IMG/VR virus record: IMGVR_UViG_2529293142_000010
Reading direction: 5' to 3' (one strand)
Length of the DNA stretch: 14,548 bases
DNA from: a virus
Lineage: Duplodnaviria; Heunggongvirae; Uroviricota; Caudoviricetes
The notes beneath the pieces were generated by a model. That model was not told where the DNA came from. It saw only the letters and a list, made by a program, of their open reading frames with translations, and did no database searches. The position numbers and the translations under genes are program-made. Shown here piece after piece: positions 1 to 10,704 of the stretch (within the stretch, counting starts at the first letter, position 1; each line of letters begins with the position of its first letter).

Positions 1-209
1 TCTGTCTTGGAAAGAAAAATTACGTGTTCTTCGGTAGCGATCACGGCGGCGAGCGTGGTGCACTGCTGTACGGGCTGATCGGCACCTGCCGTCTGAACGG
101 TATCGATCCGGAAGCGTATCTGCGCCATATTCTGAGCGTACTGCCGGAATGGCCCTCCAACCGTGTTGACGAACTCCTGCCATGGAACGTAGTTCTCACC
201 AATAAATAA
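1..209 (+). CDS. IS66-family transposase, C-terminal fragment (5' end lies outside the window)
   Basis: Frame is open from the window edge to TAA at 207-209. The translation ...KKNYVFFGSDHGGERGALLYGLIGTCRLNGIDPEAYLRHILSVLPEWPSNRVDELLPWNV matches the conserved C-terminal motif of IS66-family transposases as I remember it. Confidence 0.8.
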   Translation, partial: CLGKKNYVFFGSDHGGERGALLYGLIGTCRLNGIDPEAYLRHILSVLPEWPSNRVDELLPWNVVLTNK

Positions 210-238
210 GCGTCAATACGGTGCTCCGTTGACGCTTA
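207..238. repeat. Perfect 10-bp inverted repeat (TAAGCGTCAA / TTGACGCTTA) with a 12-nt spacer at the IS terminus
   Basis: Read directly from the sequence: 207-216 and 229-238 are exact reverse complements. The left arm overlaps the transposase stop codon. Confidence 0.7.
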
Positions 239-239
239 C

Positions 240-335
240 AGGCAAGGCGACGCGGATCTGGTTCTTTGTTGTTTCCCGCTCGGACTTGAATGTTTCGGCA
301 AGGTCACCGCTACGAGTCTGGTCTGATATGGCCAT
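240..335 (-). pseudogene. 5' remnant of a gene interrupted by the IS66-family element (first 32 codons MAISDQTRSGDLAETFKSERETTKNQIRVALP)
   Basis: ATG at 335-333 is preceded by AGGAG (rc of 344-348) with an 8-nt spacer. The frame runs into the IS-derived sequence and stops at 215-213 after 8 further codons. Confidence 0.45.
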
Positions 336-350
336 TTGATAAACTCCTGA

Positions 351-376
351 AAACAAAAACCCGCCAAGTGGCGGGT
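351..376 (-). terminator. Rho-independent terminator closing the minus-strand cassette
   Basis: GC-rich hairpin CCCGCC-AAGT-GGCGGG at 360-375, followed on the minus strand by TTTTTGTTT (rc of 351-359). It lies about 20 nt downstream of the stop of the small ORF at 397 and is asymmetric, with no T-run on the plus-strand side. Confidence 0.75.
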
Positions 377-396
377 CTACAGGAACAACTCTAAGT

Positions 397-567
397 TTAT
401 TTTTTCTGTTTAAAATTGTCCAACTCAGGTTCTTTAACGCTTTCTGTCATGTAATCCAATCCATCAAAAGGTACTTCAAGCATTATACTGCTTTCATAAT
501 CAGCCATGGATTGCTCTGCTTGCGTTGGCTTACTTTGCTGTGAGTTGTCATTATTTGATGTTGTCAT
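397..567 (-). CDS. Small acidic hypothetical protein, 56 aa (MTTSNNDNSQQSKPTQAEQSMADYESSIMLEVPFDGLDYMTESVKEPELDNFKQKK); below the ORF-track length cutoff
   Basis: ATG at 567-565 lies 3 nt after the stop of the upstream membrane-protein gene (571-573); stop TAA at 399-397, just before the terminator. Same strand and same AT-rich composition as its neighbour. Hand translation gives 11 D/E, 5 K and no R. Confidence 0.5.
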   Translation of the reverse strand: MTTSNNDNSQQSKPTQAEQSMADYESSIMLEVPFDGLDYMTESVKEPELDNFKQKK

Positions 568-570
568 CAA

Positions 571-1125
571 CTATGCCTTATTTATCAAAAGAAAAGTAAC
601 CGATAATATGAAAAAACCGAAAGATAACGCAATTCCTTCAAAAAGATAACGAGCATAAACTGCCTTTTCTTTATGAAGACTTTCGATCAATTCAACAGCT
701 TTACCATACTGAAACATATGGTATCTAAGCGTTTTAATTTTATCACCGTAAAGTAAAAAATCATGCTCTTCTTTTCGCTTATGAATAGGCATTTTTGGTA
801 TATCTTTCAGTCCCCAAGTACGCCATAGGAAAAAAAAGCACATAACAATACAAACAAAGCATAGATATGCACAAAGTATAGATAATGTTAAAAACCAATT
901 ACTCTTTAGCCCACTTTTGAAATCAACAGTCCCAAATACAGCCAGTAGAGCAGAGGTTTCTACAGCTAAAATAGCAAGAAGGTAGTTAACTTTGTCCTCA
1001 AGACGACGATATGTTGATTTTGCTTCCTCATATCTATCTTTATAATATGACGAAATAAAATCAGCGCCTATAGTCTCAATTGCCTTTTGTTCTTCTGTTG
1101 TATCTATTGGCGAACACTTGCTCAT
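571..1125 (-). CDS. Hypothetical inner-membrane protein, 184 aa, three predicted TM helices with a charged N-terminal region of about 45 aa and a basic loop of about 60 aa
   Basis: ORF track. Hydrophobic stretches are LLAILAVETSALLAVFGTV, FLTLSILCAYLCFVCIVMCFFFLW and GIALSFGFFILSVTFLLI. Very AT-rich, roughly one third G+C by eye against over half in the structural genes. ATG at 1125 lies 7 nt after the stop of the upstream gene. Confidence 0.75.
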   Translation of the reverse strand: MSKCSPIDTTEEQKAIETIGADFISSYYKDRYEEAKSTYRRLEDKVNYLLAILAVETSALLAVFGTVDFKSGLKSNWFLTLSILCAYLCFVCIVMCFFFLWRTWGLKDIPKMPIHKRKEEHDFLLYGDKIKTLRYHMFQYGKAVELIESLHKEKAVYARYLFEGIALSFGFFILSVTFLLINKA

Positions 1126-1132
1126 TTCTTAA

Positions 1133-1480
1133 TCAACCAACAACTTTCTTACACGGGAAAGAGCCAATAATTTTCGGAGCATCCATGCTGTTCTGCAACA
1201 ACTGGACGTTCAGGAAACGCGTTTTAGTGCCCGGTCGATGGATATACTCGAACCCATAATTGTTGCCATCTTTGGCAGGCATCAACTCCATTTTGATCTG
1301 CATGCCTGTACCGTCTTTACCCAACATTTTTACTTTTTGGGATGTTACTGTTTCGCCATTGATTTTAAATAATGAGTCAGGGATCGCATCCATACGAAAG
1401 TTGCCGCATTGCATCGTTATGGTGTTTGCACTTACACCAACAGACACTAACGCCAGCAATGAAAATATCCATCGTTTCAT
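1133..1480 (-). CDS. Hypothetical secreted/periplasmic protein, 115 aa, with an N-terminal signal peptide (MKRWIFSLLALVSVGVSA|NT) and two Cys in the mature part
   Basis: The ORF-track frame 1133..1561 begins at an upstream alternative start; the first ATG with a Shine-Dalgarno (GAGAGGA upstream) is at 1480-1478, and the protein from there opens with a classic positive-hydrophobic-AXA signal peptide. There is no lipobox, so it is not called a lipoprotein. The start is 2 nt after the stop of the frameshifted tail gene. Confidence 0.7.
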   Translation of the reverse strand: MKRWIFSLLALVSVGVSANTITMQCGNFRMDAIPDSLFKINGETVTSQKVKMLGKDGTGMQIKMELMPAKDGNNYGFEYIHRPGTKTRFLNVQLLQNSMDAPKIIGSFPCKKVVG

Positions 1481-3270: not shown

Positions 3271-3392
3271 CACCACTTCTGACGGTTTTTATAGGCATGA
3301 TCAGCGACAGCGGCCCCGACCTCTACCGGATGCTCTGTTATTTCAAGCATATCTGTGTGCTTCTCTGAAATAACAACACTGGGAACAATCAT
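3270..3392 (-). CDS. Possible small ORF, 40 aa (MIVPSVVISEKHTDMLEITEHPVEVGAAVADHAYKNRQKW) filling the gap after the tape measure gene
   Basis: ATG at 3392-3390; its TGA overlaps the ATG of the next gene by one base (TGATG). The Shine-Dalgarno is weak (AGGA immediately adjacent to the ATG). It contains the 10-bp inverted repeat at 3336-3375. Confidence 0.25.
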   Translation of the reverse strand: MIVPSVVISEKHTDMLEITEHPVEVGAAVADHAYKNRQKW

Positions 3393-3439
3393 TCCTATTT
3401 TTCTGCTCTGCTGATGAAAAAGTGTAGAGAGAATATCCA

Positions 3440-5428
3440 CTAACCCACCCTCACCTGATTACTTCGCATGACCTGAGCATTTGCAGACTGTTGCCGACGT
3501 GCAACCTCATTACCGACAGCGTGCGGATCTCCGCCACCGTAAATGTGGTAGGTATTTTGCTGGTTAACCTCTGTCACTTTGCCACTAATTCCCGCCACGG
3601 CAGCCTTATTAATCAGCTCTCGAGAATAGATATTTCTTCCATTCTCATGCTGGATAATGCTGCTCATCAATGCTGACATGGTTTGCGGATCGCTCATATT
3701 CAGGGCAGCCCGGGGATCCACTCCCAGTCGTTGCGATACAGCCCTGATATACGCGGTTGTGTTGTTATTATCAGACGCAGGTGCCCAGGTAGAGATAATT
3801 TTCTCCACACTGTTTATTCCCCGTCCGGCGTACAGCATTAACTGACGAGCAAGAGCCCGTAATCCATCAAAAGCGGTTTCAAATCTGGCAAATCGCCCGC
3901 CCGGGCGTTCAAGAGAAGCCCCAGCCTGACCAGCAAAATTAAGATTTCCCGGATTGTTATTCCGTTCTCCTCGTTTCGTAGCCTGTGCATGTTGTTCCGG
4001 CTCATCATCACCAAACCAGCCGCGTACCGTCCGGCCCACACTGCGGGGATCAAATCCCCAGTGCTCTTTAATCCAGTCGGCAGTACTGTTAGCGCTGTCT
4101 GTAACCATCGGCATCGCTGACGGATTTTCGCTGCCCTGATTAAGTATCTGTTTGCCGATGCTGACGGCATCAGCCCAGCGGCCATCTTTGATAGCGTTGA
4201 GCAGGTCGGCGATCATGTTCAGCATTTTGCTGAATTCGCCCATCTGGTCGATGAAGTTGCTGAAATCCCACTTCAGGGACCATGATTTGGGGTCAATATT
4301 GAGCAGTTTCGCCAGCGCTTTCACCAGGTCGTTAACGGTCGTTTCAAGGTCACGAACCATCTTCAGCGCGGCATCAACCTCCGGTTTCCACTTGCCCCAG
4401 TCAATCAGGCTGTCGCCGCCTTCCTTCCAGGTCTGATAGTCCTCCCACAGGAGGGCAATCCCCGCCGCCAGCGCGGTAATGAGGCCAATCGGCGACATCC
4501 AGAACGTACTGTTCAGAATGCGCAGCGCAATCGTCAGTGCGCCAAACAGCGAGATCAACTCCCGCGTTTGCTTATCCAGCGATTGCCACCAGGTGATGAG
4601 GCCTGATGTCCCCTCAATCAGTCTGAAGAACAACCGCCCGATAATATCCCCGAGCGCCAGAATGCCTTTTATGGCTTTCGTCAGGGTCTGCTCGATACGC
4701 GGGAAGTTGTCCAGGATATGGCGGCGCAGAGTGTCCAGCGAACCCGCAAGCCCACCCGCAAGATTAGAGCCGATTTTGTCACGGGCCATGCCTGCCATCG
4801 CGCCAAACTCACGCAGGGAGGTCATAAATTTGTTGGAGCTTCTGGCCGCCTCGTCAGCATTGAAGCCGATAGCTTTCGCCATTGCGCTGTACTGCCCGGA
4901 GAAGCCACCCACACCGCGACGCACAGCCATCAGGGTATTTTCGTCAATGCCCAGCATCTGCGCATACTGGTTAGCACGGTAATACGGCATGTCGCTGAGC
5001 TTCTGGCCTACCCCTGTAAAAATAGCGGCCATGTCACGCATGTTACCGCTGGCATCCCGTGTCTGTACCCCCAGACGATTCAGAAATCCCTCCGCCCCGG
5101 GATTATTACGAATAAACCGGGAGAGGTTTTCCAGAGAAGATCGCGCAGCGTCCACGCTGCCGCCAACCTGCGAAACCGCATAGCCAATAGACTGAATTCC
5201 CTGGACTGTCGCTCCGGTGCGCTGTGACGCCCAGTAAAGATTATCCAGACCGGAGGCGATCTTAGCCGTGAAGGCCACCACGGACAGCGCAGTTCCTTCG
5301 ACGGCCAGCCCCATTTTGATGACATTTGCAGTTGTACCGGCGAGGACAGAACCGAATTTTTTCGCTCCTGCATCATCCACACTGAAGCCAAGCGAGACGA
5401 GGAAATCTTTAATAGTTTCAGCGTTCAT
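3440..5428 (-). CDS. Tail tape measure protein, about 662 aa
   Basis: Large ORF directly downstream of the frameshifted chaperone; Ala/Gly-rich helical N-terminal part; internal hydrophobic segments (LISLFGALTIALRILNSTFWMSPIGLITALAAGIALLW). The ORF-track start at 5449 is a TTG; the first ATG is at 5428, preceded by GGAGAGAGG. Confidence 0.85.
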   Translation of the reverse strand: MNAETIKDFLVSLGFSVDDAGAKKFGSVLAGTTANVIKMGLAVEGTALSVVAFTAKIASGLDNLYWASQRTGATVQGIQSIGYAVSQVGGSVDAARSSLENLSRFIRNNPGAEGFLNRLGVQTRDASGNMRDMAAIFTGVGQKLSDMPYYRANQYAQMLGIDENTLMAVRRGVGGFSGQYSAMAKAIGFNADEAARSSNKFMTSLREFGAMAGMARDKIGSNLAGGLAGSLDTLRRHILDNFPRIEQTLTKAIKGILALGDIIGRLFFRLIEGTSGLITWWQSLDKQTRELISLFGALTIALRILNSTFWMSPIGLITALAAGIALLWEDYQTWKEGGDSLIDWGKWKPEVDAALKMVRDLETTVNDLVKALAKLLNIDPKSWSLKWDFSNFIDQMGEFSKMLNMIADLLNAIKDGRWADAVSIGKQILNQGSENPSAMPMVTDSANSTADWIKEHWGFDPRSVGRTVRGWFGDDEPEQHAQATKRGERNNNPGNLNFAGQAGASLERPGGRFARFETAFDGLRALARQLMLYAGRGINSVEKIISTWAPASDNNNTTAYIRAVSQRLGVDPRAALNMSDPQTMSALMSSIIQHENGRNIYSRELINKAAVAGISGKVTEVNQQNTYHIYGGGDPHAVGNEVARRQQSANAQVMRSNQVRVG

Positions 5429-9534: not shown

Positions 9535-9721
9535 TTTTTACCTCGTTACGCGCGTCTGTGGCTTTGCCAACGGATACTTCCGCGTGCGCACGAGTGAACC
9601 AGTGCGTGGCAACGTCTTCCTCCACAGCATGACGGCCTTTAACAAACTCGCGCCGTGAACCGTCGGGAAGCGTGAGCACAAACGGGGTATGTACGTGTAT
9701 TACTGCATTATTTTTTGCCAT
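9500..9721 (-). CDS. Small hypothetical phage protein, 73 aa, Lys-rich C-terminus
   Basis: ORF track; ATG start; lies between the capsid and adaptor genes; 35-nt overlap with the downstream gene start. Confidence 0.5.
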
Positions 9722-9762
9722 CGGGTCATCCTTAATGGCCCCGCCAGGGGGCCATATGGCTG

Positions 9763-10704
9763 TTAAATGCCATCAACGTACGAAATGGTTTCTTTGTACA
9801 CTGGCTCGACTGCACCCAGCTTGCCGTAGTAAGTGACGATCTGATACAGACCGCGATACTGCACCGGCACGCTCTGAAGCGGAACCAGCGGGTAGCGGAC
9901 GTATTTTTTATCGTTGGTGTACGCAACCATGCGATCCTTATTCCCCACACCACGGCCTTTCAGCCATTTAACCGCGCGGATATTCAGCGGAACACCGTTC
10001 TGGTGATAGCTGATGGTGTTGGTCTGAAGGTACGTCAACAGGGACTGGTTACCCGCAGATGAAACGATGATGCTGGACAACAGAGCAAACTGCTCAGGCG
10101 GGATCAGCAAATCACGCGGAACCACAGAGTAACCGGAAGCGGCCCACGCATCAGACAGCACCTGGTTAATGCTTGCGCGGATTTCGTCCGGTGTTGAGGT
10201 TGCCCACGTTTTGGCAGCGTTGTTGACAGGCACACCGTCCAGGGTAACAAGACCTTTCAGGTTTAATGCGGAATCGCCAACATATACCTGTTCATCGTTA
10301 TCCATCTGCCATTTCAGTTGCATACCGTCATACTTCTGCGTATCAATCGGGCGGCCGACCTGCTGAGCAGCCTGCAATTCTATGACCGTCCAGCCAAGTT
10401 CCATCCCCCACAGGTTCAGCGGGTTACCGGATTTGCCGATATCCACGTTCACGCCAGCAATAGCGGTTGAGTCTTTGCCTACCCAGTTTTTGCCATTCGG
10501 ATTTGCACCAGTACCCGCAGCGGCGAAGCTGGTATTCGTCCAGCTGGAAATGTCATCTGCGATGGAGACATCTTCACGCAGTTGGATATCGCGGGTCCAG
10601 GTGTACCCCACCAGTGGCAGGTTCAGCGTCTGGTCGAGTCGCTCCAGCTCCCCGATGAGAAAGGCACCAGAGCTGTCAACGGTTGCCTGATCAAAAGTAA
10701 TCAT
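9763..10704 (-). CDS. Major capsid protein, 313 aa
   Basis: ORF track; ATG preceded by AAGGA 9 nt upstream; the longest head-module ORF after portal and MuF, directly downstream of a decoration-like gene. Confidence 0.75.
   Translation of the reverse strand: MITFDQATVDSSGAFLIGELERLDQTLNLPLVGYTWTRDIQLREDVSIADDISSWTNTSFAAAGTGANPNGKNWVGKDSTAIAGVNVDIGKSGNPLNLWGMELGWTVIELQAAQQVGRPIDTQKYDGMQLKWQMDNDEQVYVGDSALNLKGLVTLDGVPVNNAAKTWATSTPDEIRASINQVLSDAWAASGYSVVPRDLLIPPEQFALLSSIIVSSAGNQSLLTYLQTNTISYHQNGVPLNIRAVKWLKGRGVGNKDRMVAYTNDKKYVRYPLVPLQSVPVQYRGLYQIVTYYGKLGAVEPVYKETISYVDGI

Follow-up and report, generated by a model that had tools for sequence, protein, structure and literature searches.

A probable moron-slot terminator between the baseplate hub and central spike genes of a prophage interrupted by an IS66-family element

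In phage lambda, RNA polymerase modified by the Q protein ignores intrinsic terminators. One of the defining traits of morons is their independent expression in the lysogen. Morons have been described as autonomous, terminator-bounded units located in phage hotspots (bioRxiv 10.1101/2024.10.15.618418; PMC9122126). In P22-type phages, the tailspike gene is immediately preceded by the 'ant moron', within a Q-dependent late operon (PMC2629481). The window (the whole stretch of DNA that was analysed, 14,548 nt) carries a hairpin with a U-tract that most probably serves as the terminator of such a moron slot, here in the tail module of a prophage. Its elements are the following:

378..357, minus strand: extended hairpin of the putative terminator, made of the core and three extension pairs
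375..370 / 365..360, minus strand: core stem of the hairpin, CCCGCC / GGCGGG, six GC pairs
369..366, minus strand: hairpin loop, ACTT
359..350, minus strand: U-tract of the putative terminator, TTTTTGTTTT (U5GU4)
349, minus strand: a single C between the U-tract and the Shine-Dalgarno sequence
348..344, minus strand: Shine-Dalgarno sequence AGGAG, with an 8-nt spacer to the ATG
335..333, minus strand: ATG of the spike gene

Hairpin, U-tract, Shine-Dalgarno sequence (SD), ATG and all the phage genes are found on the same (minus) strand. The site has the composition of an intrinsic terminator, namely a GC-rich stem-loop directly followed by a U-tract and oriented with transcription. The predicted folding energy of the hairpin by itself is about -15.3 kcal/mol, and the 83-nt stretch that holds it folds more strongly than its shuffled versions (z = -2.55). 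In a scan of the whole 14.5-kb window, the hairpin ranked first among the terminator-like sites. The scan overall remained at chance level, with 16 sites seen versus 14.2 expected, so the case for a terminator rests on conservation and covariation and not on the scan count.

A previous sequence-only reading of this DNA had described a terminator T-run abutting AGGAG-N8-ATG at 335, which is exactly what is present on the minus strand. Its statement that no room is left for a promoter also holds, as the foot of the stem and the ATG are 21 nt apart, too close for a sigma-70 promoter to fit. A promoter-like match further upstream (TGGACA-17-TAAACT at 422..394, minus strand) was considered for the spike gene and rejected, because its transcripts would begin just before the hairpin, the match is restricted to this cargo class and the scan as a whole does not rise above chance. 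The U-tract of the window contains one T fewer than every other copy compared. In the window's cargo class only, UUCCUG (380-385, minus strand) can pair with CAGGAG (344-349, minus strand), forming an outer helix that would hide the SD. As a general feature, this SD-sequestering helix was rejected, since it is not kept in the other cargo classes.

The gene that follows the SD is interrupted by the insertion sequence (IS), with these features at the junction:

1..239, plus strand: right end of the IS66-family insertion sequence
207-209, plus strand: stop codon of tnpC of the IS66-family element
about 215-239, plus strand: terminal inverted repeat of the IS, ending in ...GACGCTTAC
240..247: 8-bp stretch predicted as the target site, AGGCAAGG (CCTTGCCT when read along the gene), deduced from a reference copy
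213..239, minus strand: tail of a fusion ORF read from the IS, VSVNGAPY, then a stop codon at 215..213
335..240, minus strand: start of the baseplate central spike gene, 32 codons (MAISDQTRSGDLAETFKSERETTKNQIRVALP), with the same sequence as in intact alleles

Positions 1-240 of the window are 100% identical to annotated IS66-family tnpC ends. The element has the terminal repeats (GTAAGCG...) and the tnpC DDE transposase of this family, and the Pfam domain DDE_Tnp_IS66 is recorded on contigs carrying the same junction. A reference copy of the IS in gatB ends in GTAAGCG... and ...GACGCTTAC (CGCTTAC) and is flanked by an 8-bp duplication, ACCAAACT. On the basis of this copy and its flanks, the end of the IS was placed at 239, a base which is by coincidence the same as the next base of the target. 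The earlier claim of a gene intact for 32 codons up to an IS66-family terminus is therefore borne out by both the intact alleles and the gatB copy, and the junction that it had left to be defined is fixed at 239.

A duplication of 240-247 is predicted at the other end of the IS. In the case of a simple insertion, the other junction would read CGCTTAC + CCTTGCCT + GGCATTATTCAG, followed by the remaining spike gene. The window does not extend to this second junction, which was also absent from all collections searched. No junction-spanning record was found among complete E. coli genomes by megablast with window positions 1-420, and the exact junction was not encountered when genome, viral and metagenome collections were scanned. 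The 32 spike residues and eight IS codons together encode a 40-aa fusion peptide. This exact peptide is a gene call on at least 13 draft contigs of other isolates, all of which stop inside the IS. Its presence on contigs of other isolates indicates that the insertion is real and common to a lineage; GCA_900007745.1 is one example of an isolate carrying the junction. The 40-aa ORF called as a gene in public annotations is thus the stump of an essential tail gene.

The 892 nt adjoining the IS show 98.5-99.8% identity to 21 complete E. coli genomes. The ORF agrees with the intact alleles over exactly 32 codons (335..240) and continues in these 21 genomes to 250 aa, which provides the uninterrupted allele that the sequence-only reading had set as its test; the product is annotated as a membrane-puncturing spike protein. 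Carriers of the intact prophage include E. coli 2013C-4465 and O103:H2 12009. In the intact allele, the N-terminal spike domain (Pfam PF18352) covers residues 31-132 with an E-value of 2.4e-44, and a GpV Apex motif is also matched (Pfam, E 1e-4); the window itself keeps residues 1-32 only. An N-terminal OB-type domain, a C-terminal apex motif and a position after the hub, as expected of a spike, are all found in this allele. Upstream lie the genes of the tape measure, a Dit-like protein, the plug and the hub; downstream, those of the wedge protein, baseplate J, DUF2612, the tail fibre and an invertible fibre segment. Of 5426 complete E. coli genomes, 307 contain the spike gene.

The cut gene is the prophage's own baseplate central spike, the tip of the tail. 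It had been taken for a fourth gene of the neighbouring cassette, an assignment which is contradicted by the conservation of the spike, by the conserved baseplate genes on either side and by its presence with different cassettes or with none. The breakpoint of the IS coincides with the start of the first folded domain. An insertion after codon 32 removes every folded domain and thus creates a null allele of an essential tail gene. Having lost its spike, the prophage is unable to build a tail tip and is defective. On the other side of the spike gene, phage SEN34 (L004) has an extra 45-aa ORF and ~240 nt between spike and wedge (4257-4496), where the two genes abut in the E. coli prophage. This interval may be a second small insertion slot.

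Compared with the intact prophage, the window carries single-base indels at 354-359, 1861, 1991, 3028, 3049, 3290, 11221 and 11695. Through them, the U-tract has lost one T and the hub and Dit-like genes are broken. Other isolates that share the IS junction lack the first six. The indels are explained either by sequencing errors or by private decay in a prophage that was already dead. A first reading of the hub and Dit-like frameshifts as prophage decay was dropped, as they are private to the window and may be sequencing errors. Two other differences were observed. In the head-tail connector region (9539-9787), ~250 bp do not align to the 2013C-4465 prophage, which is elsewhere 97-99% identical; this looks like a small mosaic replacement. 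An isolate with an identical IS junction (L099) differs from the window by ~70 substitutions in 10 kb, clustered from hub to tape measure, which suggests that a related prophage recombined with it once the IS was in place.

Upstream of the hairpin, three small genes separate the spike gene from the hub gene:

397..570, minus strand: 57-aa acidic cargo gene, last in the slot (phrog_18231, function unknown)
571..1125, minus strand: 184-aa membrane-protein cargo gene (phrog_18554, function unknown), GC 0.31-0.37
1133..1480, minus strand: 115-aa signal-peptide protein, first in the slot (phrog_3443), semi-conserved across the phage family
1483..2547, minus strand: baseplate hub gene, which borders the slot upstream and is broken here by two private single-base indels

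Each enterobacterial relative compared has its own set of small genes at this position between hub and spike:

Window type: 115 aa + 184 aa + 57 aa
vB_EcoM-689R2: 111 aa + 170 aa
SEN34: 113 aa + 140 aa
YP3: 113 aa + 266 aa

The hub homologues of Providencia PSTCR3 (37% identical) and Bordetella IFTN9 (33% identical) overlap the start of the spike gene, and neither cargo nor hairpin is present in these two. Variation was further assessed in 80 viral contigs with spikes at least 90% identical. Across these contigs, the identity of hub and spike is at least 90-99%; the interval between them ranges from 700 to 1885 nt and contains ~16 unrelated cargo types. The first position is usually taken by a member of the ~113-aa signal-peptide family, whose genes are 52-68% identical where the hub exceeds 93%. 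The GC content is 0.31-0.43 over positions 397-1480 versus 0.52-0.58 in the flanks. The slot cargo presents three of the features of a moron: a deviant base composition, nothing or other genes at the same site in relatives, and a putative terminator of its own. The slot is an accessory-gene hotspot with fixed borders, the stop codon of the hub on one side and the conserved terminator-SD block on the other.

Among complete E. coli genomes, 21 carry the window's cargo. The class-specific genes are those of 184 aa and 57 aa alone. The three-gene cassette proposed earlier is consequently reduced to these two, the 115-aa gene being a semi-conserved member of the slot. No Pfam match was obtained for any of the three slot genes of the window, and PHROGs lists all three as of unknown function. 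With PADLOC, the 184-aa protein gave a weak match to PycTM (E 9e-4) and the 57-aa gene none. Other classes carry a YafO toxin, a DUF2335 membrane protein, or gene pairs with a weak HEPN match.

Several details of the slot genes were noted. In the contigs compared (window 1133-1480; L017-L096), the first gene always encodes a signal-peptide protein, which is either the ~113-aa phrog_3443 type, a 241-aa protein with a lipobox, or a protein of 158-175 aa. The 113-aa family diverges far faster than the hub or the spike; its N-terminal half is variable and its C-terminal half (NVQLLQNSMDAPKIIGSFPCKK) nearly invariant. Six two-gene classes (L023, L032, L047, L054, L065 and L090) combine a protein of 243-266 aa with one of 123-142 aa, the small protein having SRAYY..H and RN.ADY motifs and a weak HEPN_IX match. 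In class L033, a 192-aa protein is paired with a YafO-family toxin. In YP3 (L005), a direct repeat of ~125 bp (2455-2578 and 3377-3500) flanks the 266-aa cargo gene. Its second copy ends at the spike ATG, both copies contain a promoter-like TTGACT-17-GACAAT, and the terminator is absent.

In the window class, the genes from the hub onward are spaced by only 2-7 nt. No promoter-like site was found ahead of this cargo, the sole sigma-70 match being at the 3' end of the 57-aa gene. In nine of 20 other classes, promoter-like matches are found close to where the 115-aa gene meets the cargo, such consensus matches being weak evidence. The cargo of the window class might be expressed only late.

The block formed by the putative terminator, SD and ATG is kept in 77 of the 80 close viral contigs. 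It is also found in SEN34, vB_EcoM-689R2 (689R2), 683R1, Mulock, ST16 phi5.2, yong1 and Omnitron. The sequences located 5' of the stem are unrelated between cargo classes; similarity starts precisely at the 5' base of the stem and runs through the U-tract, GGAG and ATG. The GGAG lies at the same distance from the ATG in nearly all relatives. Among 16 variants of the hairpin, all cells (107/107) can pair, and three of the seven pairs are changed on both sides. None of 500 shuffles attained this result, and slid controls pair at 28-55%. Compensatory changes are found in yong1 (C-G to U-A), Mulock (G-C to A-U) and Omnitron (C-G to G-C). The energies of the hairpins among relatives range from -11 to -16 kcal/mol. 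In the structural region of SEN34, the hairpin is the only strong co-directional terminator.

The block is missing where the cargo is missing (PSTCR3, IFTN9), as well as in three classes with cargo on the opposite strand (L070, L086 and L095; ST405; Magia). There are two departures from this pattern: YP3 has co-oriented cargo yet no hairpin, and one class (L053, L087, yong1) retains the hairpin though its main ORF runs on the opposite strand. On this comparative evidence, the presumed terminator-SD-ATG block is part of the phage backbone and under selection.

The 4-nt loop (window 366-369 and its equivalent in L017-L096) is hypervariable, with ACCC, ACTT, GGAT, ATCC, ATTC, ACCA, GCTT and TTCG among spikes at least 95% identical. 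Of these, GGAT and ATCC are reverse complements, and identical cargo is associated with differing loops in L021 and L055.

Late transcription of this phage family appears to be governed by a Q protein. In the closest intact E. coli prophage, a region beyond the window encodes a full-length Q antiterminator (PF06530, E 3.5e-42). Downstream of Q, all the lysis and structural genes are co-oriented, which is the organization of a Q-antiterminated late operon. Between the Q region and the holin gene of the intact E. coli prophage (L007), a strong terminator with a 9-bp stem and a run of seven T (26936..26915, minus strand) resembles tR'. SEN34 has an annotated Q-like gene and is a plaque-forming myovirus (PMC5261728). 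Since the spike is indispensable and SEN34 has the same block, polymerase must pass the hairpin in lytic growth. The sequence-only reading had proposed either read-through, in an attenuator-like arrangement, or a leaky terminator. The first part stands insofar as the spike gene can be transcribed only by polymerase that passes the hairpin; the attenuator does not, as the 5' sequence is unrelated among classes and no Rfam family is matched above its threshold. The read-through is best explained by the Q antiterminator of the phage, judging from gene content and order.

From the structure, its conservation and covariation, its link to the cargo and the presence of Q, we infer that the hairpin and U-tract very probably form the terminator of a moron slot, stopping lysogenic transcripts and being passed by Q-modified polymerase in lytic growth. 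The host phages would be temperate myoviruses with lambda-type regulation (SEN34-like), and the intrinsic terminator would represent the fixed 3' border of the slot between the hub and central spike genes. In the lysogen, transcripts begun in or before the cargo would end at the hairpin, which would provide the cargo mRNA with a stable 3' end. Insulated from transcription of the cargo, the genes for spike, wedge and tail fibre would thereby be kept silent. Upon induction, polymerase modified by Q at the late promoter would ignore the hairpin, as it would the tR'-like terminator after Q, and would read on into the spike gene, whose ribosome-binding site directly follows the U-tract. In the window, an IS66-family element has been inserted after codon 32 of the spike gene.

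The hairpin could instead be a deliberately leaky terminator that sets stoichiometry, reducing transcription for the low-copy baseplate tip, wedge and fibre below that for the high-copy sheath and tube encoded upstream, with or without Q. This function, which could coexist with that of a moron terminator, is in line with the position of the hairpin, which separates the tube, sheath, tape-measure and hub genes from the spike, wedge and fibre genes. Retention of the hairpin where the main cargo ORF lies on the opposite strand points in the same direction, unless the block was simply inherited. However, the cargo-free relatives overlap hub and spike without any hairpin, and it is also absent from YP3 and three cargo classes. 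Its absence in those relatives implies that a dosage dial is not required by the tail module and that the hairpin tracks the cargo and not the operon. A leaky terminator of this kind is consequently regarded as unlikely.

It is more doubtful still that the hairpin is mainly a recombination breakpoint, whose terminator-like appearance would be a by-product, or that each cargo brought along a similar terminator. Every class shows its break in homology precisely at the 5' base of the stem, and the loop varies (GGAT and ATCC being reverse-complementary, and the same cargo having different loops) next to a nearly invariant stem and downstream sequence. One could imagine, with an equally small probability, that the hairpin is the crossover point of an undescribed exchange site, at which cargo is swapped by template switching or microhomology in the stem. 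If true, this would explain both the exact breakpoint and the hypervariable, once inverted, loop, and the terminator would double as a cassette boundary, loosely like an integron attC site. Yet neither a recombinase nor a partner site is present at the upstream border, and homologous recombination within the conserved hub and spike genes would be enough to move the cargo. Free drift of the loop is expected in any terminator, and the conserved U-tract would be unneeded by a pure recombination site.

An attenuator, with termination regulated by an alternative RNA structure, a leader peptide or a ligand, is very improbable. A terminator immediately 5' of an SD would suit it, and the UUCCUG/CAGGAG helix could hide the SD in the window's class, but this helix is restricted to that one class and the unrelated sequence 5' of the stem makes a conserved antiterminator or sensor impossible. 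No leader ORF is present and no Rfam family exceeds its threshold; a sub-threshold Trp_leader match (22 bits, for a gathering score of 41 bits) reflects the hairpin alone. Finally, a chance hairpin without function, as the chance frequency of terminator-like sites in the consensus scan might suggest, is hardly credible and is refuted by the conserved structure, the covariation and the SD-relative position, which in this top-ranked site is kept across genera with compensatory changes.

With the moron-slot terminator as the preferred reading, the 'cassette' consists of accessory genes carried in a phage hotspot, and a four-gene system does not exist here. The hotspot belongs to a prophage family present in ~6% of complete E. 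coli genomes and holds ~16 small gene sets, mostly uncharacterised. Its sharp borders ease the harvest of candidate defence or exclusion genes. The locus also offers a natural system for measuring a Q-type antiterminator against a strong internal terminator.

The locus can be compared with four described systems. Like the lambdoid morons (HK97 gp15; the 'ant moron' of P22/epsilon34), it contains variable, compositionally deviant genes between conserved tail genes, the set is absent or different in relatives, and late transcription has to pass the closing intrinsic terminator. Unlike them, it is located in a myovirus tail of the SEN34-like family, between hub and spike, without an evident promoter in the window's class and with one terminator-SD block behind many unrelated cargos.

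The IS resembles other members of the IS66 family (tnpA-tnpB-tnpC, 8-bp duplication) in its GTAAGCG/CGCTTAC terminal repeat and in a tnpC end 100% identical to annotated copies. In contrast to full copies, only one end lies within the window, and the duplication is predicted.

As in the P2-like hotspots (old/tin, Z/fun; PMC9122126), one of which is near baseplate or tail genes, fixed sites between conserved phage genes are occupied by a wide choice of small systems, toxin-antitoxin-like and HEPN-like genes among them. The PADLOC matches are weak here, a defence role of the cargo is putative, and a Q antiterminator takes the place of an Ogr-type activator. The similarity to lambda tR' lies in an intrinsic terminator within the late unit downstream of Q, and a tR'-like terminator follows Q in the intact relative; the window-type hairpin differs in being situated ~18 kb into the operon, at the border of a moron. 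A moron-slot terminator in a Q-controlled late operon is of a well-known kind, and the bounded hotspot is useful but unsurprising.
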